A stretch of 64,000 bases of DNA from an uncultured virus (IMG/VR IMGVR_UViG_3300042294_002722) (IMGVR_UViG_3300042294_002722); one strand, 5' to 3'; positions 1,285 to 43,189 are shown, counted from the first letter of the stretch. The notes: generated from the sequence alone by a model not told the origin. A program made the numbers and translations.

Positions 1285-1981
1285 TGATGACTTGCAGCAC
1301 TCCTCCTTCGATAAGCCGGTTGATCCCGCCGGTTATGTCCCGCAGTGCCCAGCGGTATTGGCCGAGAGTTGCGGTAACGGCAGTGGTGATCGTCACGGTG
1401 AAACTGGTTGATGTGCGTGTGATGTTCGCGGTCTCGATCACTAGCACATCAAGCTGATCGGAGTTTTCGACAACGAACCGCAGCGTAAGCGATGTTGTGT
1501 CCTCATCAAGAGGCACAGTTGCCGTAGTCGACTCGTTGTAATGCATCGTGATCGTAGAACCAGCAACGCGGTCGACCGTCACGAACACGGTGTCGGTGGT
1601 GATCAAATCCGTCTTGGCCTTGATTGCGGCCACCTCTGTGTCCACAAAGTTATCAATCGTGTCTATCTTTGATTCGATCGTGGTAAGTTGCGTGGTTATC
1701 GTCGACAAATCCGCAGCACTTTCCGATCGCGGCTGAAACGTCGCCGTGCTCAACGTGAGGTCGTACACCTCGTTCGCAAATCCACCCGTCGCACCAACAA
1801 ACGCATTGAGCCGATACGCACCGGCAGGAATCGACGTGAACGCAACGCTGTAGCGGTTCTTGTCGTTGGCCTTTTCGGTTGCCGATGCGGTAGCAACGAC
1901 CGTATCGCTACCGAGAGCGAACAACTTGCAACTCAACGTTAAGCCAGTACCGGCACTAAACTCCAGCGTCTGCGTTGCCAT
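1262..1981 (-). CDS. Hypothetical beta-rich, Thr/Ala-rich virion-like protein
   Basis: 239-aa ORF in a minus-strand gene run; contains DTEVAAIKAKTD segment. Confidence 0.55.
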   Translation of the reverse strand: MATQTLEFSAGTGLTLSCKLFALGSDTVVATASATEKANDKNRYSVAFTSIPAGAYRLNAFVGATGGFANEVYDLTLSTATFQPRSESAADLSTITTQLTTIESKIDTIDNFVDTEVAAIKAKTDLITTDTVFVTVDRVAGSTITMHYNESTTATVPLDEDTTSLTLRFVVENSDQLDVLVIETANITRTSTSFTVTITTAVTATLGQYRWALRDITGGINRLIEGGVLQVISAANKDA

Positions 1982-2120
1982 CCGTTTCGTCCTTCAAAGC
2001 TTGGATCTTCGCTGCGAGGGGCAGTAGCACACTTGCGGCTTGGAGTCCACCGTTCTTAACGGCCAAGTCCAAGCATGCCATCAGTTGCTGTTGCTCTTCT
2101 TTGGTGATTTCCAGGTTCAT
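1956..2120 (-). CDS. Small hypothetical protein (54 aa, MNLEITKEEQQQLMACLDLAVKNGG...)
   Basis: Hand-translated ORF below the track cutoff that fills the gap between neighbouring genes. Confidence 0.6.
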   Translation of the reverse strand: MNLEITKEEQQQLMACLDLAVKNGGLQAASVLLPLAAKIQALKDETDGNADAGV

Positions 2121-2124
2121 AAAA

Positions 2125-2451
2125 TTACTCCGGTAAAACGTCAGGAATGTGCAACTGGGCTACGAGTGCCGCTTGTTGCTCTGGGGTAAGGGAATCAAAC
2201 ATTTGCAACGCCGACTTCTTCTTGAAATCGACAAGTTGCTTGTAGTAGCTATCGCAAGCCGACCGCATCACCGACTCAAGATAGCTCTGTGCCGTGAACA
2301 GTTCCTTGAGCGGCTTCTTGTCCGCTTCGGGTAGACTCGCATTGCTCGCGGTGATCTGTTCGTTCTCGGTTTGAATGGGCTTGTTTGCTTCGAGCGTCGC
2401 GAAGTCTACGCCCCATCGTTGTTCTTGTGTTAACTGTGTTAGGTCGATCAT
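2125..2451 (-). CDS. Hypothetical protein
   Basis: 108-aa ORF tightly packed in the operon. Confidence 0.6.
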   Translation of the reverse strand: MIDLTQLTQEQRWGVDFATLEANKPIQTENEQITASNASLPEADKKPLKELFTAQSYLESVMRSACDSYYKQLVDFKKKSALQMFDSLTPEQQAALVAQLHIPDVLPE

Positions 2452-2462
2452 GGTTTGGGTTC

Positions 2463-4791: not shown

Positions 4792-6933
4792 TTAGATGTT
4801 TGCAGGTAAGGATTTTACGCCGTCAATGTCCCCGATGCTCGATGTGTCAACTCTGCCCCGCCTGTACCATTCTTCCAGTTCTTTTTCAGGGATGTTGTAG
4901 ATATATTTCTCTACATCGGCGCTTCCGTCCTGTAGCCAGGATGTGTTGCATAGCCTGTGGAATCGTTGACCATCTGAGGCTATCCTTACACCGGCCCATC
5001 CCATATTGTGCGCCCATTGGTTATTTGTATCTCTCGCGTGGATTGCGAATCCGTCAGGGTGCTGCCCTATGCGGCGAATGGCAATCATGGAGCATTGAAA
5101 CATGGGCTTTAGTTGCTCTACGTTTCTGTTATGCTGCTCTATGCTCGTTACCGGGGTGGACTCCAAAACCCGGCAAGCGGTATACGGACGAAGATCGTTA
5201 TTCCAGGCCCAGTCCCCGATCCTGCGATACAGTCTTTCAGACTGAGGTTCCGGGTAATCAGTATCTCGGGTGGCCCCGGCAGCATTCATCAGTTCCCTAA
5301 GTTTGGGCGTGGAGCAAAATACCACTCCATCTTTGACCAGGGATTCCGACATTGGTTTGCAGTACAGGCCGTCCCCGCCCTTCATGTTTGCCCGTTGTCT
5401 GGCGAATCCGTAATTGATGCAAAATGGCGCAATAGATTGGGGACCGAACTGGAGTTTACCGATGTATTCCTCGGGTTCGCCAAGTAATGCGATTTCGACG
5501 CACATACGCTCGAACCAGCGGCGAAAAGTATTCGACCATACGCAATTGTGTACGCCGAGTCCATCGGCCACATAACTATTATCGCCGGGAACCTCGAAGT
5601 TGTAAACCTTGCCGGAAAACGGCACTTTTTCAATGCCGCGAACCTGTCTCCAGACGACCGAGTCCTCAACAATTGCCTGCATAGGCTGTTGGTTGTCTCG
5701 GATAGTGACATCATAGCGACGTTGTCTGGATTTGACCCCATGCGAAATCTTGGGGTCAGTAGACTGTATGGAGGGCAACATGCCCAAGGCATGGGCAATG
5801 TTGAACATATCCAAAGCCAATGCCTTGGATATGCTAACACCCTGCCAAAATGCCCCCTGGTCGCTGCTTTGTTCACTACGATGTCCGTCTCCGTCTAGCC
5901 AACCTTGCAGCAGCCCACGAAGGAACGCTTCGTTGCCGGAGGCTAGGTCGGCATGGAGCCGCTTACCACCCGAACCGCAACCAAAAAGGCTTTCAAAGAG
6001 CTTGGACCATACACACGAATGCAATACAACCTTGCAAGTGTTTTGCTTAGGTTGTGTAACCGATACTTCGATGCCAAACTTAGATTGCATCAAAGATGCC
6101 AGTTTAGCTGCGTGTGTTTCAAGTTCCTTGGCGTGTAGCGTCCAAGTCAACTTTGTTCGGTCTGTGTTGCCTTCTGCTAGATAAAGTCCGCAAATCCAGC
6201 CAAAATCGCTATCCATTTCGATAACGTCTGGAACGGTACGATAGGTCTTTACATGCGAATCGCCGTGTGTTCTGTGTGTTCCCACAGCGGCTTTCCTAGC
6301 AGCGCGAATCTGTTGCCCGGACTGAACGATGTGGTCAGTGGTATGTAGGTAGTCTGCCGTCTTAGGGGCGTACTTTGGCAAAGCGACGTAGTCATCCAAA
6401 CGAAGTTCAGACGCCCTGACGTAGCCTCGCTTGGTCAAGAGCGGGTGTTCTTCGGTCATTCTGACCCGCATGTGCCCCCACAGCTTGATTTCGTAGATGT
6501 CTTCCGACACCTCGCGACCGCCTATTTGAGACACATAAGAAACATTGCCCTCAGCAGTCAAAACCTGCTCAAACAAACGAATCTGTTCAATAGGTTTTTG
6601 GCTTCCGTCTGCCATGCGAATAAGCGTACCCGCTGGGAAACAACTGCCAATTTTTTGCGATAGCCATGTAAACGACTGACCGAATACGAATTCGTCAATC
6701 AGGGTCAAATCCTGTGACCCTGGAAACCTTCCTCGATCTGCCTGGAACTTTTCCCACTTTGCCTTGATAACGGGCGGCATTTCTCTAGCAGGCCGCTGTT
6801 CATAGGCTAAAGGGTAGTCTTGGTACGCCTTGTCGAAGTAACGCTTTTCCGCATCAAGCATTTCTTGTTCGGTATGAGTGCCTGGAATCACCCATCCCAT
6901 CTGGCCGGGGCTATAACCTAAGTCTCCACTCAT
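4792..6933 (-). CDS. Papain-like (C1-type) cysteine peptidase interrupted by an intein
   Basis: Spliced sequence reads QKIGS|CVW (QxxxSC motif), with downstream WAHNM and NTSW; likely start ATG 6933 overlapping the upstream stop. Confidence 0.75.
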   Translation of the reverse strand: MSGDLGYSPGQMGWVIPGTHTEQEMLDAEKRYFDKAYQDYPLAYEQRPAREMPPVIKAKWEKFQADRGRFPGSQDLTLIDEFVFGQSFTWLSQKIGSCFPAGTLIRMADGSQKPIEQIRLFEQVLTAEGNVSYVSQIGGREVSEDIYEIKLWGHMRVRMTEEHPLLTKRGYVRASELRLDDYVALPKYAPKTADYLHTTDHIVQSGQQIRAARKAAVGTHRTHGDSHVKTYRTVPDVIEMDSDFGWICGLYLAEGNTDRTKLTWTLHAKELETHAAKLASLMQSKFGIEVSVTQPKQNTCKVVLHSCVWSKLFESLFGCGSGGKRLHADLASGNEAFLRGLLQGWLDGDGHRSEQSSDQGAFWQGVSISKALALDMFNIAHALGMLPSIQSTDPKISHGVKSRQRRYDVTIRDNQQPMQAIVEDSVVWRQVRGIEKVPFSGKVYNFEVPGDNSYVADGLGVHNCVWSNTFRRWFERMCVEIALLGEPEEYIGKLQFGPQSIAPFCINYGFARQRANMKGGDGLYCKPMSESLVKDGVVFCSTPKLRELMNAAGATRDTDYPEPQSERLYRRIGDWAWNNDLRPYTACRVLESTPVTSIEQHNRNVEQLKPMFQCSMIAIRRIGQHPDGFAIHARDTNNQWAHNMGWAGVRIASDGQRFHRLCNTSWLQDGSADVEKYIYNIPEKELEEWYRRGRVDTSSIGDIDGVKSLPANI
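5545..6642 (-). mobile_element. Intein (366 aa) with LAGLIDADG homing endonuclease
   Basis: Starts CFPAGTLIRMADG, block B MTEEHPLLT, LAGLIDADG motifs GLYLAEGN and GWLDGDG, ends VYNFEV...GVHN followed by Cys+1. Confidence 0.95.
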
Positions 6934-7706
6934 TGTTTTGCCTCCAGACCTACGGCTACTGCGTCGAAATAGTCCGCTACAGTCATTCGACTCATGGGCC
7001 ATCGGACTTTGACATCAGCACTCAGCAATTCAGAGAATGCCCGCCACTCGGCTACATTCGTACCCACGATTCTAGTGCGTTCTTGGAAAGATTTGTCAAA
7101 CACACCGTTGACCGTAACAGATTGGTTTTCTCGAAGTTCGATTGCCGCATTACGGTAGACTTTGGCGACTTCAAGTTTCCTAGGGGCTGATACAGTAGCA
7201 GCCGCGACTCGCTGACCGATATTATCGAACACATCGGGTGGCACAGGTTTATCAGGCCCGGGAGGAGTAGGGCCAGGGGGATTGGGATCAGGTTGCACAT
7301 CACCGAGTTCCACTTGGACTACCTTTTCATCGATTCCTTTTTCAGGGTCAAACGCAATGATCTCGATTGCGTATTTACCGGAACCGGTCAACAGATAAAC
7401 GCCTTCTGAAATCTGTTGAACATTAGAACTTTCAAACAAGCTCGTCCGCGCTTTTACGCGAACGAACTTAAAATCCGTGACAACAGTGATCTGAGCAGCA
7501 GGTAGCACCCTAGGAGGCTGATCGCCGTCGTAAAGAATCACATCCCCGACTACACGGGGATTAGATACCCCAGACAGGACGCGGGACTTGACAACAGTTA
7601 CGTCTAAATCTGCCAGAGCCACTGAACACAGTAGGCCCCAAATAATGAACACTGCTGCACGAATCATGGCTGCTATTACTTCCTGAGTGCTTGGACGAGC
7701 TTCCAC
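6930..7706 (-). CDS. Secreted/membrane hypothetical protein with Pro-rich linker
   Basis: Signal-peptide-like N-terminus, PDPNPPGPTPPGPDKP linker. Confidence 0.6.
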   Translation of the reverse strand: MEARPSTQEVIAAMIRAAVFIIWGLLCSVALADLDVTVVKSRVLSGVSNPRVVGDVILYDGDQPPRVLPAAQITVVTDFKFVRVKARTSLFESSNVQQISEGVYLLTGSGKYAIEIIAFDPEKGIDEKVVQVELGDVQPDPNPPGPTPPGPDKPVPPDVFDNIGQRVAAATVSAPRKLEVAKVYRNAAIELRENQSVTVNGVFDKSFQERTRIVGTNVAEWRAFSELLSADVKVRWPMSRMTVADYFDAVAVGLEAKQ

Positions 7707-20759: not shown

Positions 20760-20794
20760 TAACCCCTAGGGATATCCCTAGGGGTTATTTTATT
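20760..20794 (+). terminator. 28-bp perfect palindrome/terminator
   Basis: TAACCCCTAGGGATATCCCTAGGGGTTA (20760-20787) followed by TTTTATT. Confidence 0.75.
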
Positions 20795-21220
20795 GGCCTC
20801 CAGGCCTCCAGGCCTCCAGGCCTCCAGGCCTCCAGGCCTCCCGTGGCCTCCCGTGGCCTCCCGTGGCCTCCAGGCCTCCCGTGGCCTCCAGGCCTCCAGG
20901 CCTCCAGGCCTCCAGGCCTCCAGGCCTCCAGGCCTCCAGGCCTCCCGTGGCCTCCAGGCCTCCCGTGGCCTCCCGTGGCCTCCAGGCCTCCCGTGGCCTC
21001 CCGTGGCCTCCAGGCCTCCAGGCCTCCAGGCCTCCCGTGGCCTCCCGTGGCCTCCCGTGGCCTCCCGTGGCCTCCCGTGGCCTCCAGGCCTCCAGGCCTC
21101 CAGGCCTCCAGGCCTCCAGGCCTCCAGGCCTCCAGGCCTCCAGGCCTCCCGTGGCCTCCCGTGGCCTCCAGGCCTCCCGTGGCCTCCCGTGGCCTCCAGG
21201 CCTCCCGTGGCCTCCAGGCC
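20795..21220. repeat. Aperiodic two-unit array of GGCCTCCA (29 copies) and GGCCTCCCGT (19 copies)
   Basis: Hand-parsed order A5 B3 A B A7 B A B2 A B2 A3 B5 A8 B2 A B2 A B A = 422 bp. Confidence 0.97.
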
Positions 21221-21230
21221 CGCACACGCA

Positions 21231-21370
21231 TACCTTTGCCCCCTGTTTACCTACCTTTGCCCCCTGTTTACCTTTGCCCCCTGTTTACCTACCTTTGCCC
21301 CCTGTTTACCTTTGCCCCCTGTTTACCTACCTTTGCCCCCTGTTTACCTACCTTTGCCCCCTGTTTACCT
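21231..21370. repeat. Seven copies of ACCTTTGCCCCCTGTTT with an optional ACCT spacer (17/21-bp period)
   Basis: Directly visible; pyrimidine-rich strand. Confidence 0.95.
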
Positions 21371-21462
21371 ATTTCACTGGATTTCCTATTGTGTTTTTGC
21401 CGATAACTAGCTAATCTGAGTTGTTCGGTTCTGTTTCACTGTTTTTAGAAAGGGTTTTACCT

Positions 21463-22362: not shown

Positions 22363-22403
22363 TGTCAAGTTGTATTGACAGGGTTGCCGATAAAGTAGAT
22401 ATT
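22363..22403 (+). promoter_or_regulatory. Early promoter/operator copy 1 (TGTCAAGTTGTATTGACAGGGTTGCCGATA)
   Basis: 30-bp identity with the copy at 24499; TTGACA embedded in a TGTCAA-N6-TTGACA inverted repeat. Confidence 0.7.
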
Positions 22404-22467
22404 GGGAAAACCGATTGCCGAACTGGTTGGTAATCAGAAGTTCAAACGAGAAAAGGAAACGCAGAAA

Positions 22468-22737
22468 ATGAGCAACGCAACAACCGCACGCGACACACTG
22501 GTTTACGAAGTCACTATTACCGATCTTTGGGCAGAGGAAGGGGGATGGTCAGGCAACTATTCTTGGGTACGTCGATTCACTGTTTCGGTTCCTGCCAACT
22601 GGTCAGACTTGCGGATTGCCCGCAAGATCAAACGGGTTGCCGGGTTGCAGGGATGGAAGACTGATTTTTGGGCAGGTTGTGATTTTTGCTGGCGCGACGG
22701 ATGCGTAGGGGCTTACGCTGAATTGCGATACGAATAG
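22468..22737 (+). CDS. Hypothetical early protein
   Basis: AAAGGA RBS, GNYSWVRR motif; its stop codon overlaps ribozyme copy 1. Confidence 0.65.
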   Translation: MSNATTARDTLVYEVTITDLWAEEGGWSGNYSWVRRFTVSVPANWSDLRIARKIKRVAGLQGWKTDFWAGCDFCWRDGCVGAYAELRYE

Positions 22738-22809
22738 CAGAGGGGCACGGGCTATCCCGTGCTAATGCACCCCGGGCAACTTCGCTCGGTTGCTGGTCCC
22801 CAGTCCAGG
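22737..22809 (+). ncRNA. Twister-like self-cleaving ribozyme, circularly permuted (P5-type topology), copy 1
   Basis: GCA-GAGGG / P1 GCACGGG-CTAT-CCCGTGC / U^AA-UGC / P3 CCGGGC..GCTCGG / P4 CTGG-TCCC-CAGT-CCAG; predicted cut 22763^22764. Confidence 0.8.
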
Positions 22810-22833
22810 TTTTCTTTGAAAGGGTTTTAACTC

Positions 22834-23721
22834 ATGGTTACATTTTCACAATCTCGCGCTGATCTTGAAGCACAAGTTCGCAAGGCATTCGATTTCAAGG
22901 TCGAGCGCCGGGAACTGTTCGGTCCCAGTGGAGAGCAGACCGGGTTCTACGGGTTGTTTCGGTCTGACACAAACGAAATCGTCGCTCCTTCGTCGGTATC
23001 CGATAGGTACGCACCACATCAGACCGAAGACGTTCTGCGACTGTTTGACGCGACCTGGGAAGCGTTTTCCGGCATCGCGAACGTGTCTTGCCATTTCAAT
23101 AGGGGTCATTACCTTTCGATCACGCCAGACAAGGCAACCCGGCTGAACGTCTTCGGGACGACTGACGGCATTTTCCCGAGACTCGTTATCAAGGCAGGAT
23201 ACAACGGGAAACCGTTTTCTCTGGAGATGGGATGGTATCGCGACATGTGCAAGAATCTTGCACGGATGGCGAGCGTTGCGGGAACGTCAACGAGCATTCG
23301 ACACACGCTGTCCCTAGAGGGGAAGATTACCGATGTTATCGAGTCATTTTCGCAGGTCCGTGAATCGTGGCAGGCCCTCGGGGACCGTGTGCGGGCCTTT
23401 GAGTCGATCAAGGTCGAAGTCCCTCAATTCGTCGAAGAAGTCTTCGGGCAACCGGGGGAATCGAGCGTTGCCCAAGGACATGCCCAAAAACGCCTGGATT
23501 CCATCGCAGGACGCATTCTGCGCGAACGTGCGGCATCTGGCAGGGGCAACGGCCAAAGCCTCACAGCAACGGGTTGGGAGGCATTTAACGGGGTTCAGGG
23601 GTACATCCAGCACGATGTGCGCCGGAACTCGAAACCGGGCCAGTGGGATCGAATGCTCTTGGCTTTGGATGATCCACATGTCAGCAAGGCTGAACAGGTC
23701 TTGCTAGCCCTAGCAGGTTAA
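22834..23721 (+). CDS. DUF932/DUF945-like phage/plasmid early protein
   Basis: FRSDTNE...VSDRYAPHQ, RxxCxN, SIRHT, TGWEAFNGVQGYIQH motifs. Confidence 0.75.
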   Translation: MVTFSQSRADLEAQVRKAFDFKVERRELFGPSGEQTGFYGLFRSDTNEIVAPSSVSDRYAPHQTEDVLRLFDATWEAFSGIANVSCHFNRGHYLSITPDKATRLNVFGTTDGIFPRLVIKAGYNGKPFSLEMGWYRDMCKNLARMASVAGTSTSIRHTLSLEGKITDVIESFSQVRESWQALGDRVRAFESIKVEVPQFVEEVFGQPGESSVAQGHAQKRLDSIAGRILRERAASGRGNGQSLTATGWEAFNGVQGYIQHDVRRNSKPGQWDRMLLALDDPHVSKAEQVLLALAG

Positions 23722-23722
23722 T

Positions 23723-23795
23723 GCAGAGGGGCACGGGGTAACCCGTGCTAATGCACCCCGGGCAACTTCGCTCGGTTGCTGGTCCCAAGTCCAGG
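23723..23795 (+). ncRNA. Twister-like ribozyme copy 2
   Basis: Same fold as copy 1; P1 capped by a GNRA loop (GTAA); canonical GGTCCCAAG; predicted cut 23749^23750. Confidence 0.85.
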
Positions 23796-23816
23796 TCTTT
23801 TGAAAGGGTTTTGAAA

Positions 23817-24041
23817 ATGGAACGATACAGCGATTTGCCGCATAAGCGGTTTGTAAACGGCAAATGGGTCTGGGAACCGTTTGAAGGGAAAAGCGCGGCT
23901 TATTGGGAAGCGGTCGGCAACCGCACAGCACACACTGGTCCTAATCTGCGCAAGCAACCCTGCCAGCGTTGCGGCAAGAAACCTTCATTGATTGTTATAA
24001 AACCAGAATCTTGGTTTGTCTGGTGTGTAAAGTGTTCTTAG
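23817..24041 (+). CDS. Small Zn-finger-like early protein
   Basis: GAAAGGGTTTT RBS; CQRC...CVKC. Confidence 0.6.
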   Translation: MERYSDLPHKRFVNGKWVWEPFEGKSAAYWEAVGNRTAHTGPNLRKQPCQRCGKKPSLIVIKPESWFVWCVKCS

Positions 24042-24066
24042 GTTTTTCTTTGAAAGGGTTTTGAAA

Positions 24067-24495
24067 ATGGAACGATACGTCGAATGGGAATTCACCGGCG
24101 CGGGCAAGGTTTCCTGGGGCAACTTTTTGGCCGCCGAAGCGGTCGCGATTGTCATGGACCGCGAGCAAACCGAAGTGCTGACCTTAGATATTGCCAAGCG
24201 TGCGGCTGATAGGCTCGGGAGCGGTTACAACGCTGAGTCGGTGTTGACACTAACCGCAGGTTGCCGGTTCTGGCGAGTAGAGAAGGAGAAAGAGCAACCA
24301 CCGATCCTTCGCTCTAGCGAAGTCGTGCAGGCTCTCTTCGATTCCACCGGAGATGCGTCTACCTTCGCTGAACGGAGGGCACGCGCGAACGCAGGAGCGT
24401 TTGGCGCGGCATGGGCACATCTGACCGACGAAAAGCGCTTGTTCCTGATCGAATGGGCGAAGAAATACGGAGCGGAAATACGGAGCGGAAAATAA
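24067..24495 (+). CDS. Hypothetical early protein
   Basis: Leader TTTGAAAGGGTTTTGAAAATGGAACGATAC is identical to that of the 23817 gene. Confidence 0.65.
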   Translation: MERYVEWEFTGAGKVSWGNFLAAEAVAIVMDREQTEVLTLDIAKRAADRLGSGYNAESVLTLTAGCRFWRVEKEKEQPPILRSSEVVQALFDSTGDASTFAERRARANAGAFGAAWAHLTDEKRLFLIEWAKKYGAEIRSGK

Positions 24496-24498
24496 TTC

Positions 24499-24538
24499 TG
24501 TCAAGTTGTATTGACAGGGTTGCCGATACAGGTATCAT
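24499..24538 (+). promoter_or_regulatory. Early promoter/operator copy 2
   Basis: TTGACA 24511-24516, 16-bp spacer containing GCCGATA, TATCAT 24533-24538. Confidence 0.75.
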
Positions 24539-24583
24539 TCCAAGGGTTGGTTTTAGGTTTCTACTTTTGAAAAGGGTTTACAG

Positions 24584-25042
24584 ATGAGCGTTTTGGATTC
24601 GGTTGTTTTTGGTACGTTGGCAAAGGCACTGGAAAAAGCTTTCGACCGCAAGGGGCTTGACGATGGCGATTCTCACTCGGTGGAAGCCGATATCGTCGGC
24701 AAGGTGGACGGGATTCCCTTCTCCACTCGTCTTGCGGCTGATATGACCGTTGGTCACGCCAGCACTCGGGCATCGAGCGTAACGCCAGACTCGGCAGAAA
24801 CGCTGGCATACGTCCTAGAACTCGTTGCCCTGGCCTACGGTGACGTAGTGGTCGAAGACATCCTCGATGACCTGCTGGCGGCCTACAAAGCCAACGGCAA
24901 GATTCCTGCCGATCCTAAGTACCTCGGGTTCGTGCAGGTCTTGCAGTCTGCTTTGCGCAAGGAGAAGCAAACCTCGGTTGCCGGTGCTGTCTCCGTTCGT
25001 ACCACTCAGGCTCCCACGCTGAGCGTTGCAGGGGTGCAATAA
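24584..25042 (+). CDS. Hypothetical early protein
   Basis: 152 aa, GAAAAGGGTTT RBS. Confidence 0.65.
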   Translation: MSVLDSVVFGTLAKALEKAFDRKGLDDGDSHSVEADIVGKVDGIPFSTRLAADMTVGHASTRASSVTPDSAETLAYVLELVALAYGDVVVEDILDDLLAAYKANGKIPADPKYLGFVQVLQSALRKEKQTSVAGAVSVRTTQAPTLSVAGVQ

Positions 25043-25125
25043 TGGAACCGCAAACGATTTTCGTCCTGGTTGCGTTTGCAATCGGGGCACTGGGGTTTCT
25101 TGGTTTTCTCCTCGATCACAAATAG
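25042..25125 (+). CDS. 27-aa hydrophobic micropeptide MEPQTIFVLVAFAIGALGFLGFLLDHK
   Basis: TAATG-coupled to the upstream gene; stop overlaps ribozyme copy 3. Confidence 0.6.
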   Translation: MEPQTIFVLVAFAIGALGFLGFLLDHK

Positions 25126-25196
25126 CAGAGGGGCACGGGCTATCCCGTGCTAATGCACCCCGGGCAACTTCGCCCGGTGCTGGTCCCAAGTCCAGG
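25125..25196 (+). ncRNA. Twister-like ribozyme copy 3
   Basis: Same fold; P3 is fully Watson-Crick here (CCGGGC/GCCCGG); predicted cut 25151^25152. Confidence 0.85.
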
Positions 25197-25216
25197 TTTT
25201 ACAAAGGGTTTTTGAA

Positions 25217-25276
25217 ATGGAAATCGCAATTTTTGTTCTGCTCATTCTTTGTGGTTTAGGAGCGTTTAGTCGATAA
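25217..25276 (+). CDS. 19-aa hydrophobic micropeptide MEIAIFVLLILCGLGAFSR
   Basis: AAAGGGTTTTT RBS as in other early genes; TAATG-coupled to the next gene. Confidence 0.55.
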   Translation: MEIAIFVLLILCGLGAFSR

Positions 25277-25539
25277 TGGGGGATCACATCGTTTTCAAAA
25301 TCGTTCGCACGGGAGGCCAAACCACCTACGAACGGGGGATTGTGCTAGAAGGTCGAATCTTCGACTACACACTATCCCTAAGCAAAGATAAAGACATCGA
25401 GCGGGAATACCTGCGCGACATCGAGAACGCGATTGCTCGGGGCAATTCGCACATCGTATTAGGCAACGGCTGGCGCATTTACTGGCAAATACACTCACCC
25501 TGGAACATTCCAGAAGGAGAACTTCCACAATGGCAATAA
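25276..25539 (+). CDS. Hypothetical protein
   Basis: 87-aa ORF, AGGAG RBS. Confidence 0.55.
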   Translation: MGDHIVFKIVRTGGQTTYERGIVLEGRIFDYTLSLSKDKDIEREYLRDIENAIARGNSHIVLGNGWRIYWQIHSPWNIPEGELPQWQ

Positions 25540-25700
25540 ACCCCTACGGTCCAGACCCTGCGTCCGATGATTGCGATTGTTGCAAGCGGTTGGAACGATC
25601 TGTAAACCGGGTCATTACCGGATTTTGCGTAGCTACGTTTTTCTTCGCGGCTACCGTGATTATTTTGGATACTGCAATTCGTCTCGGGTTCCTAGACTAG
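25530..25700 (+). CDS. 56-aa membrane protein (MAINPYGPDP...)
   Basis: Hand-translated; AAGGAG RBS; C-terminal transmembrane segment. Confidence 0.5.
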   Translation: MAINPYGPDPASDDCDCCKRLERSVNRVITGFCVATFFFAATVIILDTAIRLGFLD

Positions 25701-25981: not shown

Positions 25982-26010
25982 GGCCCGTGAGAAGCGGGCC
26001 ATTTTTATTG
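25982..26010 (+). terminator. Terminator closing the early cluster
   Basis: GGCCCG/CGGGCC stem followed by ATTTTTATT, at a convergent gene junction. Confidence 0.6.
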
Positions 26011-27277: not shown

Positions 27278-28017
27278 TCAAAGACCTTTCCGGCGTAGCT
27301 GGCAACCCCGTCAGAGATGATGATTGGGTCAATGTTAAAGTTTCCGTTATCTCGGATGTGAGCCAGTCCTAGACAATGAACCCAGCCAGAGGGAGCATTC
27401 CGCATATACGACGGGTTTCTGTCGCACAAACAACCCAGGCTCATTGCCATGTGTTTGCAGGATATATCAATCGGACTCGCATGGGTGTGTGCTTGGTAGG
27501 TATGTGTGTGGCCGTAGATTACATTTCGTCCATACATCGAAACGTGTTTTTGGGCATGGTGTTGGTTGGTGTAGCATCCGTGCGTGAAGTACAACCTACC
27601 CTCTTTGTGGCATTCGTTGTACTCATAGCTTTTGATGACCTGCCCAGCCTTCCTACGATCCTTGAAGCAAAGCCCATTGTAATGCTCGACAAGCCCCCTG
27701 ACCTCGGGATGCTTGTCGATGTATTTTCCGGCCCGTGTTTCATGGTTCCCGGCCAAATAAACAAAATCTGGGCAGATGGAAACAAGTCGATCTAGAAGCC
27801 TGTTCCCTACGTCAAATTCGTGTTGCATCGACACCCCGGCACGTTCTAGAACGCTGTCGGGGTTATGGGAACTAAGTGGTAAGCAATCCAGAAAATCACC
27901 AAGAATTATGATTCTGTCTGGTTTGTACCATCTGGTGATTTTTATGGCGCATTCCACAGCACTTTCTGAGTGGTATGGGGCATGAACGTCTGGGAAGATC
28001 GCCAGTTTTTTAGCCAC
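27274..28017 (-). CDS. Calcineurin-like metallophosphoesterase
   Basis: DVH, LGDFLD, GNHE, THG, GHTH motifs. Confidence 0.9.
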   Translation of the reverse strand: MAKKLAIFPDVHAPYHSESAVECAIKITRWYKPDRIIILGDFLDCLPLSSHNPDSVLERAGVSMQHEFDVGNRLLDRLVSICPDFVYLAGNHETRAGKYIDKHPEVRGLVEHYNGLCFKDRRKAGQVIKSYEYNECHKEGRLYFTHGCYTNQHHAQKHVSMYGRNVIYGHTHTYQAHTHASPIDISCKHMAMSLGCLCDRNPSYMRNAPSGWVHCLGLAHIRDNGNFNIDPIIISDGVASYAGKVFE

Positions 28018-28714
28018 GTTTTCTCCTAGCCCCTACAGGGGTATTAAAAGCATCCTCTAATGACCAGCCAAGCCGAATACGGGATTTAACCGTGCGCTTA
28101 GAAATGCCTTCTGGTGTAGATTCAAGCCACTCCGACAAACACTTAGTGACTCCATTCATGGTTAGTTTTTTAGACTTTCTGGTGTTTCTGGCTTGCTCTA
28201 GGGGCGTTGCCCATTTGCAGTTGCCCGGCCCATAATCACCATCGACACACAACCGCTCTACCGTATCTGTTGGGTGCTGTTTCTTTCCCATGTCAGCCAA
28301 GAAATTCATAAATCCCTGGCCATTTGGTTCTTTCCATCGGTCGCAAACTTGGATGCCCCTGCCTCCATAATCAGGGTAATCCTTACAATTCTTATTATGG
28401 CATCTTGTGTTCATCTGCTTCCAGTGTTTGTACTCTGGGCTTTGGGACATGCCGTGTGTTTTGTTTAGCGATCTTATAGCATCCTTCTGCAAGCAACCGC
28501 AGCTTTTTGTCATGCCATTGGTGAGATTCTTTCTGCCTACCAACAAAGCCGCCCCACAAGAACATTCGCAGACCTGATATGCTCTGCGATGCCCGTCCTG
28601 CTCGGGTAGCAAAAACTTCGGCCCTACGGTCGTTAAACGACCAAAGACCTCTGGAGTAAATAACTCGTGGTCCTTGGCAACACGGATTCCATGTACTAGA
28701 ATATACTCAGCCAT
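28010..28714 (-). CDS. Free-standing HNH-type homing endonuclease 1
   Basis: CECSCG, TKSCGC, YGGRGIQVCDRW, ER...GDYGPGNCKWAT; start MAEYILVHGIRVAK after AGGAG. Confidence 0.85.
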   Translation of the reverse strand: MAEYILVHGIRVAKDHELFTPEVFGRLTTVGPKFLLPEQDGHRRAYQVCECSCGAALLVGRKNLTNGMTKSCGCLQKDAIRSLNKTHGMSQSPEYKHWKQMNTRCHNKNCKDYPDYGGRGIQVCDRWKEPNGQGFMNFLADMGKKQHPTDTVERLCVDGDYGPGNCKWATPLEQARNTRKSKKLTMNGVTKCLSEWLESTPEGISKRTVKSRIRLGWSLEDAFNTPVGARRKRG

Positions 28715-28824
28715 GATAGCTCCTGATAAGCTGTTAGCGGTTAGAAGGGCCGTGATGCAACGAACATCGCGGCCTTTCGTGTTATTGTAGCCGGTTTTGT
28801 CAAAATTTCCAAATCTAGTCAATC

Positions 28825-29508
28825 TTACAGCCCCTTGAGTGCTTCCATCATAGGTACGATGGCCGGGTGTCGCATGTTGTCCTTGGCTGTAAACCATTGG
28901 ACTGCAACGCAGTCCAGATGCTCTACAGCTTTAATAAAAGGTTCGATGCCACAAGAATTGCGGGTATCCTGCTCAGGGTCGCCACATAGCATTAGCGAGC
29001 TTCCTATGCCCATCCTAGACACAACAGCCCGTAATTCTGCCATGTTCATAATTTCAAACTCTTCGCATATAATCGCGGCGCGTTCAAATGTCATTCCAAG
29101 AACGTAACCTAATGGCATAATGGTTATGAACTGGGAAGGAATTCCTAATTTTTTAGCAATTTCGTAATTGCTCGCCACAAAATATTGCATTTTCTCCTCG
29201 GCACTTCCAGGCAACGCAGCAAGCCTCGAACGCCCCATTTCAAGAGGAGATCGGATAATAACTATCCTGTCGATTTGTTTGCGTTTAAGAGCCTGTCTAG
29301 CCCATGCCATGCAAGCGTATGATTTACCCGATCCAGGCACTCCTACTGCGATACCGACTGGCTTTTCGTCCATCATCGCCATAAACGCTCGTTGGCTTTC
29401 GTTTAGGTGCAGCTTCGAGCTAGCTACAGATGAGATTTCTTCTTCGCAGGCGGCTATTGACTTATTAGCAGGCTTGACCCCAGGAGGAACGGTTTTTCGT
29501 CTTGCCAT
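28825..29508 (-). CDS. phoH: PhoH-like ATPase
   Basis: GVPGSGKS, ALPGSAEEKM, GMTFERA, SRMGIGS, GDPEQ, MRHP. Confidence 0.9.
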   Translation of the reverse strand: MARRKTVPPGVKPANKSIAACEEEISSVASSKLHLNESQRAFMAMMDEKPVGIAVGVPGSGKSYACMAWARQALKRKQIDRIVIIRSPLEMGRSRLAALPGSAEEKMQYFVASNYEIAKKLGIPSQFITIMPLGYVLGMTFERAAIICEEFEIMNMAELRAVVSRMGIGSSLMLCGDPEQDTRNSCGIEPFIKAVEHLDCVAVQWFTAKDNMRHPAIVPMMEALKGL

Positions 29509-32130: not shown

Positions 32131-32423
32131 GTTTCGTCACCTAAGTCGATAGATCGATATCCTAAATCCCACAATATCTTAGCCAAGTCGGTAGAGAATC
32201 GCAAAACAGCGTCCTCACTCCACTTTTTTTCGCTACAGTGCGTCACTTCGTGTATAATAGTATCTAGTAAGTCGATGCCCTTTGCCTTATCAGAAATCCA
32301 GATATGTTTTTTAGGTGTGGCAGGGTCGTTTTCGGCTAATCCGTCCAGTCCACGAAGCGGGGCGGTCGTCAAAGTCCAGTATTTACCGTCAATTACTACA
32401 CGCTTAGGATGAATTGAAGCCAT
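32127..32423 (-). CDS. Small zincin-like metallopeptidase
   Basis: DTIIHEVTH (HExxH) followed by E. Confidence 0.7.
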   Translation of the reverse strand: MASIHPKRVVIDGKYWTLTTAPLRGLDGLAENDPATPKKHIWISDKAKGIDLLDTIIHEVTHCSEKKWSEDAVLRFSTDLAKILWDLGYRSIDLGDET

Positions 32424-33108
32424 GAGAAAAAAGTCCGCTAGTTATCGTTGCTGTTTTTTGGATGTACGTCTTGAGTATACAGAACAAACGTATGGCAAGT
32501 TAAAAACACTTGGACCTGCGTTTTTCTTGCCAGTAGGTAAACAGGGACGCAAATGCGATTTCCAGGTAGTAGCCTGCTCTTGTTCGAACGAAGTATTTGT
32601 AAAGCGAGTCGATGACATGAAGTCCGGGCGTGTTACATCTTGCGGCTGTGCTAGGCAAACGCATGGGTGCTGGAATAAACCAGAAACAGGCTACAAATGT
32701 TGGGAAGCCATGCTCCACCGTTGCAAACATGTTGATAAATATGCGTGTCGCAATCATGGAGCTAGGGGCATACAGGTATGCGAAAGATGGAAAGAACCAA
32801 ACGGCCAGGGGTTTTTGAACTTTATAGCCGATATGGGGCCTAGGCCATCTCTAAAACATTCCATAGACAGGATAGACAATGAGGGACACTATGAGCCGGG
32901 GAATTGCAGGTGGGCGACACAGAAAGAACAAAATTCTAATACGCGACGAAACACCTGGATTGAACACAACGGGGAAAGAAAAACAGTCGCAGAGTGGGCT
33001 AGATTAGCGGGTTTGGACGCTGGCACTTTATATTCACGAATTTTCATAGGAAAGTGGAGCGTAGAAAAGGCATTGACCACTCCTGCGAACACTACGCGAC
33101 GGGATTGA
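32422..33108 (+). CDS. Free-standing HNH-type homing endonuclease 2
   Basis: GARGIQVCERW, SIDRIDNEGHYEPGNCRWAT. Confidence 0.85.
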   Translation: MRKKSASYRCCFLDVRLEYTEQTYGKLKTLGPAFFLPVGKQGRKCDFQVVACSCSNEVFVKRVDDMKSGRVTSCGCARQTHGCWNKPETGYKCWEAMLHRCKHVDKYACRNHGARGIQVCERWKEPNGQGFLNFIADMGPRPSLKHSIDRIDNEGHYEPGNCRWATQKEQNSNTRRNTWIEHNGERKTVAEWARLAGLDAGTLYSRIFIGKWSVEKALTTPANTTRRD

Positions 33109-33311: not shown

Positions 33312-33818
33312 ATGGAAGCGACCATCGAAAATGCAATGAGTATCGTAGAAAAAGCAGTAAATCGGCTGTTCTACAAGAAATATCGCGGCAGGCTGCGGGA
33401 CTCCGATGAACTTCTTTCCGATGCCCAGATGCTGATTTTCAAGAAATTTAGCAGTTATGACCCAAAAATCGGGTCGTTTGAGGGGTATATCAATATGTAC
33501 GTCGAATTTGCGGCGATTCGACTGCTTTCCACTACTTACAAACGATCCTTACGCCGGAAAGAACACATTGGAACCATCGACGATGTCACACGGATTTCCA
33601 AAGACATTCCAGAAGGACTCGACGACCTCGTCAGACGGGCTATCGAAATTTTTGAAAGCCAAAAGTCTATGCGGTCGGATTCAGTCCGGAGAATTCTGCG
33701 AGGCGAACTCCAATCTCAAGGGTGGAGTTTGCCAAGAATTCAAGAGGCTTTCCGAGAAATCGATGCCGCCATCACGGGGGATCGAGTTTGCTGTTACGCC
33801 AAAACCGAGGAGGCATAA
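33312..33818 (+). CDS. Sigma-factor-like protein (region 2-like)
   Basis: DSDELLSDA...SSYDPKIGSFEGYI; upstream TTGACA...GCCGAT and GAAAGG RBS. Confidence 0.55.
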   Translation: MEATIENAMSIVEKAVNRLFYKKYRGRLRDSDELLSDAQMLIFKKFSSYDPKIGSFEGYINMYVEFAAIRLLSTTYKRSLRRKEHIGTIDDVTRISKDIPEGLDDLVRRAIEIFESQKSMRSDSVRRILRGELQSQGWSLPRIQEAFREIDAAITGDRVCCYAKTEEA

Positions 33819-38100: not shown

Positions 38101-39476
38101 AAGTCATTAAGCATGAAGGCAACGAGGAACGTCATGCCATAGTCGCACTGGTACTCGACCCCAAGGTATTAGCCGAGGTCGCCCCGTCTTGGGAGGGCAA
38201 GGGGTTTGGTTCCAGATGGGCGAATCTGGTCGCGCAGTGGGCAGTTGACCACTGGAACAAATACAAAACCCCTCCCACACCAGGAGACTTGGAGGGGATT
38301 TTTACCGCATGGTCCCCGACTGCCGACGATGCTTTGGTCAAGATTGTCGAAGACTGGTTAAGCAATCTACCCGGCGAATCGACTTTGAACTCTGATTACG
38401 CCATCGACCGCATCCGGCAAATTGTACAGCAAAATGCCATACATAGTCTGGGGGTGGCTCTGACGGGACTGACCGAGCAGAACCGACTAGAAGACGCTCA
38501 AAACGTCTTGGCCCTCTGGAAGGCCCCTAGAATCGGTCAGGAAGCATCCGGAGTGTTTCCGCTACAGGACGCTAATCTTGTTGACGAAGCGTTCCAGACG
38601 GCCTGCCAGGAGCCTTTAATACAGTATCCAGGGGCCTTGGGTGAGTTCTTCGGGCCTGTACTGGCAAAAGATGCGTTTGTGGCGTTTCTAGCCCCGGAAA
38701 AAACGGGCAAGACCACGGTACTGTTAGACCTCGCATGGCGGGGCGTAGCTCAAGGTAAACGGGTCGCATTCATATCCTGCGGCGATATGTCGCAGTCGCA
38801 GGTCATCGCTAGGCTGATTCCTAGGGTCTGCAAGTCCCCCATTTCGGGGGGTTTGGTCAGCATCCCTGTTTCTGTCACCTACGAGAACAAGGAACCCAGA
38901 GTTGTTTGGGAGCAAACCACTACCAGAAAAGTCAGCAAAGAAGACGCGAAAAAAGCATTCGTTGAAGCAGGAGGGGATGATCCTTCCCGGTTTAGGCTTT
39001 TAACGTACCCCGCCGGGACCGTTACCGCTAGTGACATCACCTCATTGGCATCTCGATGGGCTGACGAGGGATGGACTCCCGAGATCATCGTAATCGACTA
39101 TGCGGACATCTTGGCCTTGCCTCGCGGTATCAAGGAAACCCGAGACGGCATTGACGCAAACTGGAAGGAACTGAGGGCACTTTCGACACAGTTTCGGTGC
39201 TTGGTTGCCACGGCTACCCAGTCAGATACGGAAGGCTACAGTGCATGGTTGCTGTCTAAGAAGAACTTCTCGGACTGCAAAAAGAAGGTGGCGCACGTTA
39301 CCGCGATGATCGGTCTTAACATGACCGAGCAAGAGCGCCGTATGCAAGTGTGCCGCTACAACTACGTTGCCTTGCGGGAAGCGGAGTTCATGGCTCAGAA
39401 ACCCGTTTATATCTCGGTAGCCGGATGTACTAAGGTCGGTCGCCCGAGCATGGTGAGCGCATGGCCTACCGATTGA
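38097..39476 (+). CDS. dnaB: Replicative DnaB-like helicase
   Basis: APEKTGKT, IVIDYADIL, TATQS. Confidence 0.9.
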   Translation: MKVIKHEGNEERHAIVALVLDPKVLAEVAPSWEGKGFGSRWANLVAQWAVDHWNKYKTPPTPGDLEGIFTAWSPTADDALVKIVEDWLSNLPGESTLNSDYAIDRIRQIVQQNAIHSLGVALTGLTEQNRLEDAQNVLALWKAPRIGQEASGVFPLQDANLVDEAFQTACQEPLIQYPGALGEFFGPVLAKDAFVAFLAPEKTGKTTVLLDLAWRGVAQGKRVAFISCGDMSQSQVIARLIPRVCKSPISGGLVSIPVSVTYENKEPRVVWEQTTTRKVSKEDAKKAFVEAGGDDPSRFRLLTYPAGTVTASDITSLASRWADEGWTPEIIVIDYADILALPRGIKETRDGIDANWKELRALSTQFRCLVATATQSDTEGYSAWLLSKKNFSDCKKKVAHVTAMIGLNMTEQERRMQVCRYNYVALREAEFMAQKPVYISVAGCTKVGRPSMVSAWPTD

Positions 39477-40318
39477 GATACCGATTTAGCGCAGACAACA
39501 TAAAGCTTTCCCACCTGCGGTGCTTCGTCACCTTAGTTGACTCCTTTGATGCGGTAGAAGCCAGCCAGAAACTTGGGATAGACTGTGCTTCTTTAGAACA
39601 AAGAGTCAGGACGCTGCAACACAGACTAAAGGTGTCGCTGTTCACTAAACGGCACAGGTTTTATGAGTGCAAGCTATCAGCATCAGGAGAAATCTTCTAC
39701 AAGTACGCAAAGAAAATCCTGAGACAGTACGACAAAGTCTTAAAGGAGATGCGAGCGGTCGATATAACCGGCGGCAGAGGGCCTGTTTACGCAAGATGCA
39801 AGATAGGATGCCGCCGTGAAATGCTGACAAAAGCAGATTCTGTTCTCACCCAGATAGAAAAAGTGTTTCCTTATGGGGTGGTTACATGCCAAAGTGAACT
39901 TGAGTTTCGGGACAAGTTCACATCAGGGGAAATCAGCATGTCGGTCGGGTACACAGCGATCCCTGGCATGGTCAGCGAAGTTTGCGGAAGCGAGATTTTC
40001 ACTGCTGTCGTGCGTAAAGATTACGATCTGGCACTTAGCAATTACCCTGTTCCAATAATCTCTGTAGTAGGATTAGCAAACGTAATACAGGAAGCTAAGG
40101 ATAAGTTGCTCTTATTTTGCGGTATCGAAACAAGGGTTGTTTGGGAAGTTGATAACGTAGTCGCCGCTAGATGGTCAGCCGAGGCAGGCGCAGGAATTGC
40201 AATTATTCCCCACAGAATGCTTACACCTCAGTTGGTTTCTTTGTTTCCGGAAGAAATTTTCCTAGAAAAGCCGATTTTGGTGCATAAGACACCCGCCTTA
40301 CAGCGTAAATTGCAGTAG
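39461..40318 (+). CDS. LysR-family transcriptional regulator (divergent)
   Basis: HLRCFVTLVD..AxxLG..LQHRLKVSLFTK..LSASGEIF wHTH; EAGAGIAIIP C-terminal motif. Confidence 0.8.
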   Translation: MAYRLRYRFSADNIKLSHLRCFVTLVDSFDAVEASQKLGIDCASLEQRVRTLQHRLKVSLFTKRHRFYECKLSASGEIFYKYAKKILRQYDKVLKEMRAVDITGGRGPVYARCKIGCRREMLTKADSVLTQIEKVFPYGVVTCQSELEFRDKFTSGEISMSVGYTAIPGMVSEVCGSEIFTAVVRKDYDLALSNYPVPIISVVGLANVIQEAKDKLLLFCGIETRVVWEVDNVVAARWSAEAGAGIAIIPHRMLTPQLVSLFPEEIFLEKPILVHKTPALQRKLQ

Positions 40319-41911: not shown

Positions 41912-42583
41912 ATGGAAAACATACACGGTATTTCGATTGATCTGACAGTAAAAGACAGTAAATTTGGTAAGTTGCAGATATTGGGAGCGGCTTTCAAAAC
42001 TCGCCGCTCCGATTCGCGAACAGACTGGCAGGTAGTTGCGTCCTGCGAGTGTGGCAACATCAAGTGTTATTACCTAAGAAATTTAGTAACGGGAATGACA
42101 ACTAGCTGCGGATGCGTTCAGAAAAAACGAGCTTCCATGGCGAATACTACACATGGAAAACGAAAGTCGCATTTATATGCAGTTTGGAATGCTATGCTCG
42201 CAAGATGCCATAACTTAAAAAACAAATCATATAAAAACTATGGTGGTCGCGGTATATCAGTATGTGACAGATGGAAGTCGTTTGAGAATTTTTATTCTGA
42301 TATGGGGGACCGGCCCAGTGAGCAGCATACAATAGACCGCATCGACAACAACAAAGATTATTGCCCAGAAAATTGTCGATGGGTCACAAGAAATGTGCAA
42401 GCCACAAACAAACGCAATAACCGATACTTAGAGTACAACGGAAAAACACAAACAGTAAGCCAGTGGGCTAAAGAGTTTGGAATGGGAGCGGCTACATTGA
42501 AAAGCAGACTATTGTTAGGATGGTCAGTAGAAAAAGCGCTCACAGTTCCTGTAAGACCGGTGCGAAAAGCAAAAGGTAAATAG
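41912..42583 (+). CDS. Free-standing HNH-type homing endonuclease 3
   Basis: YGGRGISVCDRW, TIDRIDNNKDYCPENCRW; AT-rich relative to flanks. Confidence 0.88.
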   Translation: MENIHGISIDLTVKDSKFGKLQILGAAFKTRRSDSRTDWQVVASCECGNIKCYYLRNLVTGMTTSCGCVQKKRASMANTTHGKRKSHLYAVWNAMLARCHNLKNKSYKNYGGRGISVCDRWKSFENFYSDMGDRPSEQHTIDRIDNNKDYCPENCRWVTRNVQATNKRNNRYLEYNGKTQTVSQWAKEFGMGAATLKSRLLLGWSVEKALTVPVRPVRKAKGK

Positions 42584-42586
42584 ATC

Positions 42587-43189
42587 ATGGGCAGCGAAGC
42601 AACCGTATTCAAAAACGTAGATCGATTACCAAAGATCATAGGGCTTAACGGCCCCATAGGTTCGGGGAAGGACACGGTCGCTTCGTACTTAGGTATTTAC
42701 TTTACCTACGAAATCATGGGGTTTTCGGACCCGGTGTACGAAAACCTATACCGGCTCAATCCCGGTATCGTAGTGGGACATAACAAAGTGGAGTACCTCC
42801 AAACCATTGTAAACACGCACGGATGGGACTACGCCAAACGCCGGTATTCTATCGTTCGCGGGATGCTTCGCACAGAGGGCACTGAGAACGGGAGGGAGAT
42901 ACATGGTAGCGATTGCTGGGTGAAGGTCGCCCAAAGGCGGGTGGAGAACTCCAACAAGCCTCGGTTTGTGTTCCGGGATGTTCGGTTTCCGGAGGAAGTA
43001 GATTTTATTCGTTCCCTGAACGGCGAAATCTGGAGGATCGAAGGTCGAGTGTCGGACGAAGTTCAGAATCTTCCCAACCATATTTCGGAACAGCATGTCA
43101 TTGAACCCGACAAAATCATCGTAAATGACGGAACATTGTCGCGTCTGTACCATCGCGTCAACACCCTACTTTCTTGGTATCTGGAGTAA
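42587..43189 (+). CDS. Deoxynucleoside monophosphate kinase
   Basis: GLNGPIGSGKDT, GTENGR, DVRFPEE, HISE, NDGT. Confidence 0.9.
   Translation: MGSEATVFKNVDRLPKIIGLNGPIGSGKDTVASYLGIYFTYEIMGFSDPVYENLYRLNPGIVVGHNKVEYLQTIVNTHGWDYAKRRYSIVRGMLRTEGTENGREIHGSDCWVKVAQRRVENSNKPRFVFRDVRFPEEVDFIRSLNGEIWRIEGRVSDEVQNLPNHISEQHVIEPDKIIVNDGTLSRLYHRVNTLLSWYLE

Follow-up and report, generated by a model that had tools for sequence, protein, structure and literature searches.

The early message of bacteriophage T7 is cut between its cistrons by the host RNase III, and the products carry hairpins at their 3' ends and terminate in a 5'-phosphate and a 3'-OH. Self-cleaving RNAs have also been described next to phage genes: clustered hammerhead ribozymes flanking prophage genes cleave in vitro, one of them in E. 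coli, and were proposed to generate single-gene mRNAs (Perreault et al., 2011, PMC3088659). Single-gene processing has been suggested for bacterial twisters too (review PMC6765202); twisters often occur in association with phage genes and other ribozymes (pistol paper, PMC4604425), and the twister-P5 class was defined by Roth et al. in 2014, according to a review (PMC5408937). Ribozymes clustered around phage genes and the idea of message cutting have been in print since 2011 (PMC3088659, PMC6765202), and the role of bacterial and phage twisters is still regarded as speculative (PMC5408937, PMC6765202). A survey of open-access full text found no paper on a stop-codon overlap or a conserved-leader rule for phage twisters, and in the CHiTA paper (PMC11662667) phage, stop codon, operon, intergenic and tandem are all unmentioned. 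The locus considered here lies in a stretch of 64,000 nucleotides (nt) from an uncultured virus (IMG/VR IMGVR_UViG_3300042294_002722), the whole of which is referred to as the window, and consists of three type-P5 twisters within an operon on the + strand. It is considered likely that these elements, once transcribed, cut themselves and thereby separate the cistrons of the operon, giving them uniform ends.

The identity of the three elements was established by a scan of the entire window against 4227 Rfam families. Exactly three matches exceeded a Rfam gathering score, all of them to RF02684 (Twister-P5), whose gathering score is 37.6 bits, and each spans model positions 1-58 of 58 (E-values refer to that search):

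22736-22808, + strand: ribozyme copy 1, 39.7 bits, E = 9e-05, predicted cut 22763^22764
23722-23794, + strand: ribozyme copy 2, 51.0 bits (the top score), E = 1.1e-07, predicted cut 23749^23750
25124-25195, + strand: ribozyme copy 3, 46.2 bits, E = 2e-06, predicted cut 25151^25152

No other ribozyme class was found in the window by a permissive Rfam scan at E <= 1. A repeat search returned a 77-nt direct repeat with three copies, which start at 22737, 23723 and 25125; in ungapped comparison the second is 95% and the third 79% identical to the first, the lower figure being due to a 1-nt deletion. An earlier note on this DNA had claimed three permuted twister-like ribozymes and had proposed a covariance-model search, naming the lack of a significant match as the outcome that would count against it; with 3/3 copies above the gathering score, its claim of three twisters holds. 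The qualifier "like" has to be dropped, since the copies belong to the ordinary, catalogued type-P5 permutation. Judged by their sequences, the three elements are genuine type-P5 twister ribozymes and ordinary members of a known family.

The anatomy was read from the sequence against the Rfam alignment and the description in a review (PMC5408937). In the numbering of copy 1, it comprises the following elements:

22737-22739 with 22766-22768, + strand: P2, GCA paired with UGC
22740-22744, + strand: internal loop L1, GAGGG
22745-22762, + strand: P1, a hairpin of 7-8 base pairs (bp) with a tetraloop
U22763^A22764, + strand: predicted cleavage site
22769-22770, + strand: AC, the T2 partner, pairing with GU 22803-22804 of the P4 loop
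22772-22777 with 22784-22789, + strand: P3, CCGGGC paired with GCUCGG and closed by a hexaloop
22793-22796 with 22805-22808, + strand: P4, CUGG paired with CCAG (4 bp)
between the two strands of P4, + strand: P4 loop, consisting of U, CCC (22798-22800, the T1 partner), one base, A and GU (the T2 partner)

The strands thus follow one another in the order P2 5' strand, L1, P1 hairpin, U^AA, P2 3' strand, T2, P3 hairpin and P4 hairpin; P1 and P3 are closed by loops and the strand ends lie outside P2 and P4, as in the P5-type circular permutation. Pseudoknot T1 joins GGG (22742-22744 in copy 1) to CCC (22798-22800) by three Watson-Crick pairs in 3/3 copies, and T2 joins AC to GU in all three, the consensus being GC with GC. 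The core segments GCAGAGGG and UAAUGC match the consensus identically in 3/3 copies, and it is at the U^A of the latter, conserved segment that the three cuts are predicted. Copies 2 and 3 also retain the P4-loop segment GGUCCCAAG and match every upper-case position of the Rfam consensus with the exception of the covarying T2 base; copy 1 reads GGUCCCCAG at the P4 loop. When each copy was folded in isolation and without constraint, the minimum-energy structure contained P2 (3-4 bp), P1 (7-8 bp) and P3, together with the canonical P4 in copies 2 and 3, whose P4 pair probabilities in the secondary-structure ensemble are 0.93-0.99 and 0.91-0.99, respectively.

Differences between the copies are few. 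The P1 tetraloop is CUAU in copies 1 and 3 and GUAA in copy 2, one P3 pair is G-U in copies 1 and 2 and G-C in copy 3, copy 3 has one U fewer between P3 and P4, and the base 5' of GCA is a U in copy 2, where P2 therefore counts four pairs, and the A of a TAG stop codon in copies 1 and 3. As this A occupies the first model position, P2 consists of only three Watson-Crick pairs in the latter two. That the differences preserve structure, as stated previously, is correct for the P1 loop and for P3; the C at 22801 of copy 1, discussed below, had been overlooked. The missing U of copy 3 and the U specific to copy 2 are additions to the earlier note, as is a 19-codon open reading frame (ORF) after copy 3.

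To place these elements among those of other phages, twister-P5 cores were collected from IMG/VR by a generic pattern, which gave 118 stretches, with 148 unique matches on 98 contigs. T2 pairs in 146/146 parsed matches, in one of two registers, and in 113 of them it directly follows UGC, as it does in the window copies. Among 129 unique viral-contig sequences, the AC/GU form of T2 is the commonest (63), followed by GC/GC (30, and 24 more with an extra P2 pair) and GC/GU (9); AC/GU had been taken for an unusual substitution, a view that these counts do not bear out. An insert of hairpin size (at least 11 nt) occupies the P3 position in 41/146 parsed matches, and the moderate scores of the window copies are explained in part by the lack of P3 in the Rfam P5 model.

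Flanking sequence was sufficient for an analysis of stops and starts in 144 of the 148 unique matches, and in 74 of these the stop codon of a co-oriented upstream ORF ends 0-3 nt before the first G, compared with 7% at 2162 random positions of the same loci; in half of the cases (37 of the 74) the overlap is exactly that of copies 1 and 3. Downstream, an ORF starts within 200 nt of 127/144 twisters, mostly at a distance of 13-32 nt. More than one copy of the exact pattern is present on 18/98 contigs, with up to 14 copies. Rfam searches of five whole viral records returned 15, 8, 6, 9 and 14 matches, confined in each record to one strand and one region; the records with 15 and 9 matches are rated as complete genomes. 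In three of the five, an ATG preceded by a conserved, phage-specific leader comes after almost every ribozyme, and most intervals between ribozymes hold 1-4 ORFs. The module therefore recurs in other phages. Most of the ORFs in and around these arrays (55/64) have no Pfam match, and the remainder include RadC, DUF2786/DUF7168, VWA, MoxR-type ATPase and GrpE proteins.

Pairing is maintained throughout these arrays. Out of 41 array copies, 38 could be parsed (35 from three other phage arrays and the three copies of the window; three with a changed loop base were left unparsed), and full pairing was found for P2 in 38/38, for T1 in 37/38 and for T2 in 38/38. T1 occurs in compensatory types such as GAG/CUC, GUG/CAC, CGG/CCG and AGG/CCU, with at least five pair types in all, and such covariation indicates that in phages it is clearly the RNA fold that is under selection. 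As a separate observation, the twisters at 20422, 20784 and 24498 of one record, L127 (G005), have a C in place of the conserved U that opens the P4 loop (GGCCCCAAG) and nevertheless score above the Rfam cut-off; by mapping of a published description (PMC5408937), the changed position corresponds to a U-A pair that extends P4.

The same data bear on the suggestion that the repeats matter mainly as DNA, that is, as boundaries of recombination modules or as a spreading selfish insertion for which cleavage would be secondary. Copies 1 and 2 are 95% identical despite the unrelated genes on their flanks, the leader at the junction 24042 comes right after a TAG as if a ribozyme had never been acquired there or had been deleted precisely, a leader and the first four codons are common to the genes at 23817 and 24067, and one contig of run X8 connects 22829, in the leader behind copy 1, to 25217, the start behind copy 3; the 2387 nt skipped equal the spacing between copies 1 and 3 to within 1 nt. 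The X8 joint, however, is supported by only 23 nt on one side, has low depth and contains three extra letters, so that it may be either a product of recombination between ribozyme copies or an artefact of assembly over repeated sequence, and the copies are accompanied by neither a target-site duplication nor a transposase-like gene. In another phage (G002), moreover, the copies have quite different P1 stems but retain their pairing and the catalytic core; selection therefore acts on the RNA and not on DNA homology, and a role mainly at the level of DNA appears rather improbable.

In the window, the three copies are co-oriented with the genes and each lies between a stop codon and a leader (3/3), that is, several ribozymes of one orientation occupy the spacers flanking genes of phage DNA. 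The features of the unit and of its immediate surroundings, the ribozymes listed above excepted, are:

20760-20787: strong terminator-like hairpin, ahead of the + strand block
22375-22403, + strand: sigma-70-like promoter at the head of the first transcription unit (TTGACA, 17-nt spacer, GATATT; 10/12 by consensus match only)
24499-24531: second copy of a 33-nt repeat (family D5) whose other copy holds the first promoter, the two being 97% identical
22468-22737, + strand: gene for 89 amino acids (aa), no family match, heading the unit; its TAG (22735-22737) overlaps copy 1
22809-22833, + strand: conserved leader spanning the gap from copy 1 to the next ATG; ribosome-binding motif GAAAGGG
22834-23721, + strand: DUF932-family gene, 295 aa (PF06067, E = 1.8e-16; phrog_1221, function unknown), between copies 1 and 2
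23817-24041, + strand: 74-aa gene, no family match, 3' of copy 2
24042-24066, + strand: ribozyme-free junction, with the leader straight after TAG; repeat D4, 94% identical to 23799-23833
24067-24495, + strand: 142-aa gene, no family match, opening with the same four codons as the gene at 23817
24511-24538, + strand: second sigma-70-like promoter, internal to the operon (TTGACA, 16-nt spacer, TATCAT; 11/12 by consensus match only)
24550-24583, + strand: ribozyme-free leader junction, after the internal promoter
24584-25042, + strand: 152-aa gene, no family match, with the same kind of leader 5' and no ribozyme
25042-25125, + strand: hydrophobic ORF of 27 codons; its start overlaps the preceding stop (TAATG) and its TAG overlaps copy 3
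25217-25276, + strand: hydrophobic candidate ORF of 19 codons, starting 21 nt past copy 3, with a stop that overlaps the start codon (ATG) of the following gene
25276-25539, + strand: small gene following the 19-codon ORF, one of two more small genes
25982-26000, + strand: terminator-like hairpin with a T run (7 pairs, 6 of them G-C), closing the unit before genes of the - strand

No terminator-like site of the + strand stronger than that at 25982-26000 was found within 22403-25645. The ATG at 22468 is preceded by AAAGGAAA; a longer start, the TTG at 22402, would overlap the -10 element of the promoter at 22375-22403. Copies 1 and 2 enclose one gene, copies 2 and 3 enclose five ORFs, and among the genes of the ribozyme block only the DUF932 gene has a family match. 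From the two sigma-70-like promoters (22375-22403 and 24511-24538) and the small genes of unknown function it is plausible that the genes are early ones.

The TAG codons at 22735-22737 and 25123-25125 overlap copies 1 and 3 by two bases, and the TAA at 23719-23721 ends one base 5' of copy 2. The next ATGs, at 22834, 23817 and 25217, lie 25, 22 and 21 nt past the ribozyme ends, in good agreement with the earlier description of copies starting at or near a stop codon and ending 20-25 nt before a start. By alignment, a leader with GAAAGGG is common to five junctions of this operon, including the two devoid of a ribozyme. The AUG found two bases after each predicted cut (UAAUGC) was also considered as a leaderless start and was rejected, as only at copy 2 does it share the frame of the downstream gene, the open frame there covering 23745-24041, and the AUGs at copies 1 and 3 run into a stop before the next gene; this AUG is probably a coincidence. 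Upstream of the operon region, the hairpin at 20760-20787 is followed by an array in which an 8-nt unit, GGCCTCCA, is repeated in tandem about 48 times (20795-21220), and then by a 21-nt unit present about 7 times (21231-21371). The 8-nt array has a period not divisible by three and is open in each of the three + frames; the two arrays are possibly a protein-binding array or an origin.

These layouts, in the window and across the other phage contigs, would best be explained by a protein-free cutting of the polycistronic message into pieces with 5'-OH leaders. As soon as the polymerase has passed P4, the RNA would fold into P2, the P1 hairpin, the optional 6-bp P3 and P4, with T1 (GGG/CCC) and T2 (AC/GU) formed in addition, and would cleave itself at the U^A step of UAAUGC. 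With the cut 26-28 nt past the upstream stop codon, the upstream message would retain its stop; it would end in the stable P1 hairpin, for which -13.6 to -15.6 kcal/mol were calculated at the end of the 5' product, with a 2',3'-cyclic phosphate. The downstream message would begin with a 5'-hydroxyl, followed by about 45 nt of folded ribozyme remainder and by the leader of 21-25 nt with its ribosome-binding site. In this manner the cistrons would be physically separated and provided with the same defined ends and leader, and both stability and translation of each would become independent of its neighbours.

A variant of this scheme, to which little probability is given, is that cutting is gated by translation and that the ribozyme is a switch sensing translation instead of a constitutive cutter. 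A ribosome at the upstream stop would cover P2, the T1 partner and half of P1, and folding and cutting would take place only between ribosomes or before the first one arrives; gating would account for the stop being so often built into the first helix (the 74/144 against 7% given above, and two of the three copies here). If this were true, the separation of cistrons would depend on the translation load of the upstream gene.

Several observations weigh against a separation of the cistrons by self-cutting. Two junctions of the operon (24042-24066 and 24550-24583) have the leader but no ribozyme and, since they use the leader alone, a ribozyme is not needed for the expression of every cistron. 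The accessibility of the ribosome-binding site did not differ consistently between cleaved and uncleaved RNA, in fold predictions that ignore pseudoknots. None of the 24 runs carrying window DNA is listed as an RNA run, and no relatives of the operon were recovered from INPHARED phages (blastn), with the exact ribozyme pattern from viral contigs and genome contigs, with the DUF932 protein from viral and metagenome contigs, or with a lineage-specific ribozyme pattern from metagenome contigs, collections from which records of the genome of the window may be absent. To these are added the peculiarities of copy 1, whose P4 loop reads UCCCCAG for UCCCAAG owing to the C at 22801. Its canonical P4 pairs have a probability of about 0.3, with an alternative P4 register in competition, and its score is only 2 bits above the gathering score; the corresponding loop position is an A in 35/38 parsed copies, and in the pattern search the variant loop occurs in 4 viral-contig stretches compared with 118 for the canonical loop. 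Lastly, the fate of a message with a 5'-OH depends on the host. In Bacillus, the product of the glmS ribozyme is degraded via its 5'-OH by RNase J1.

Such degradation is the core of a competing explanation, by which active ribozymes would mainly shorten the life of the message or time its expression, the 5'-OH marking downstream early messages for decay. Small genes of unknown function behind sigma-70-like promoters are of a kind often needed only briefly, and glmS cleavage is known to reduce expression (review PMC6765202). With 9 to 15 per complete genome, however, ribozymes precede the majority of genes in a region and are nearly always accompanied by a strong, conserved ribosome-binding leader, an arrangement that fits the promotion of expression better than its shut-off. 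A role mainly in decay is thus judged unlikely.

With regard to copy 1, the A that is replaced would belong, by mapping of the description in the review (PMC5408937), to a non-canonical A-A pair extending T1. As the C at 22801 is predicted to destabilise P4, which would slip into the other register, copy 1 may cut weakly. It is not called dead, because twisters tolerate most single changes: in a plant twister only four positions tolerate no substitution, and activity above 20% is preserved in 71% of the single mutants (PMC5113685). It could be argued from the near-threshold score, the changed loop base and the predicted misfold of this copy, and from the many computationally predicted ribozyme candidates that fail in cleavage tests (PMC8782182), that the copies are inactive relics or structured spacers, such as stability hairpins, which do not cut at all. 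Apart from the robustness of the twister just mentioned, copies 2 and 3 keep all conserved core segments and pairings, the differences between the copies sit in loops or retain pairing, and family-wide covariation argues for selection on the fold; inactivity of the copies is accordingly the least probable of the explanations considered.

Engineered pairs of twisters are used for making circular RNA in cells. By analogy, consecutive ribozymes of the operon might release unit-length RNAs, e.g., a DUF932 message of 986 nt between cuts 1 and 2, to be closed by an RtcB-type ligase of the host into a circular, translatable RNA, a fate already entertained in the earlier note. An RNA bounded by two cuts would begin with the 3' part of one ribozyme and finish with the 5' part of the following one, so that its ends would be held together by reassembled twister halves, near-identical copies allowing P2 and T1 to form across them, and the chemistry of the ends is that of an RtcB substrate (RtcB is named in the reference list of PMC8782182). 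Nevertheless, the ends would be held by just 6-7 Watson-Crick pairs, a scan of 88 window ORFs detected no family of RNA ligases, RtcB or end-healing kinases, and spliced or circular products of clustered hammerheads were sought by Perreault et al. and none was detected (PMC3088659). Circularisation therefore finds no support in the window and is considered very unlikely.

The source of the window is an uncultivated lake phage. The window carries genes for a portal protein, the large terminase subunit and an HK97-like capsid protein, the terminase being less than 40% identical to that of any cultured phage, and further genes (family-A DNA polymerase, SNF2 helicase, clamp loader, RecA-like protein and exonuclease), and its DNA is present in lake and freshwater metagenome runs. 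In four DNA runs the contigs are interrupted at the ribozyme repeats, as repeated sequence would lead one to expect. A further contig (G001) represents the same phage, with 99.997% identity; it begins at window position 31436, which excludes the ribozyme region, and extends about 10 kb past the end of the window, so that the genome probably exceeds 74 kb in total. Its last 780 nt (G001 41966-42745) are 83% identical to window 1752-2530, which reflects either a diverged duplicate gene or the closure of the genome.

Other features of the window concern mobile elements and regulators. A 736-aa protein of the structural region (4792-7002, - strand) contains an intein with a LAGLIDADG-type homing endonuclease (Intein_splicing, E = 6.4e-13; Hom_end_hint; LAGLIDADG_3), and three HNH-type endonuclease genes are found at 28010-28897 (- strand), 32422-33108 (+ strand) and 892-1284 (- strand), two of which are paralogous (phrog_374, phrog_3377, E down to 3.6e-53); the HNH genes suggest a traffic of homing endonucleases in this phage. 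The ORF at 33312-33818 (+ strand) matches sigma-70 region 2 weakly (E = 8e-4, which misses the curated cut-off) and might encode a phage sigma factor, and a gene for a LysR-type regulator (39461-40318, + strand) lies within the replication module.

The window offers a clean, small and testable example of ribozymes recurring between phage genes. It appears useful for experiments, as it has no more than three copies, of which copy 1 is a possibly weakened natural variant, and two ribozyme-free leader junctions to serve as natural controls, and the sigma-70-like promoters should fire in a laboratory host. Two design rules can be put to the test, namely that the stop codon is fused to the ribozyme and that a conserved leader places the next start 13-32 nt away.

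Compared with the RNase III sites of T7, cuts between cistrons and hairpins at the 3' ends are alike, whereas here the RNA would cut itself and leave a 5'-OH and a cyclic phosphate. RiboJ, an engineered part, is based on a hammerhead-type satellite ribozyme. Like RiboJ insulators, in which a self-cleaving ribozyme upstream of the ribosome-binding site removes variable RNA and leaves a standard 5' leader (PMC8383906), the phage modules combine a ribozyme with a leader; they are natural, however, and may insulate expression in an analogous way. The prophage hammerhead arrays (PMC3088659) likewise consist of co-oriented ribozymes flanking single genes or short blocks in phage DNA, one of them flanking the accessory gene ardA as the window twisters flank the DUF932 gene, and the same proposals, single-gene messages or possibly circles, apply to both; the ribozyme class is another one, and cleavage was shown for the hammerheads and is predicted for the window copies.

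Relative to the type-P5 model RF02684, the window copies have the same core segments, U^A site, P1, P2, P4 and both pseudoknots, with P1 a closed hairpin. They differ from it by a 6-bp P3, which the model treats as an insertion, and by T2 as AC/GU in place of the consensus GC/GC, both of which are common in the viral-contig set, as well as by a P2 of three pairs in copies 1 and 3 and by the C for the loop A in copy 1. The nearest counterparts are the Twister-P5 arrays of IMG/VR. The window phage has only 3 copies, compared with 6 to 15 per record in the five records, its copies are near-identical and all have P3, and some of its operon junctions are free of ribozymes; the array is likewise restricted to one strand and to one region of small genes, mostly of unknown function, and is built from the same module of stop codon, twister-P5, conserved leader and ATG.

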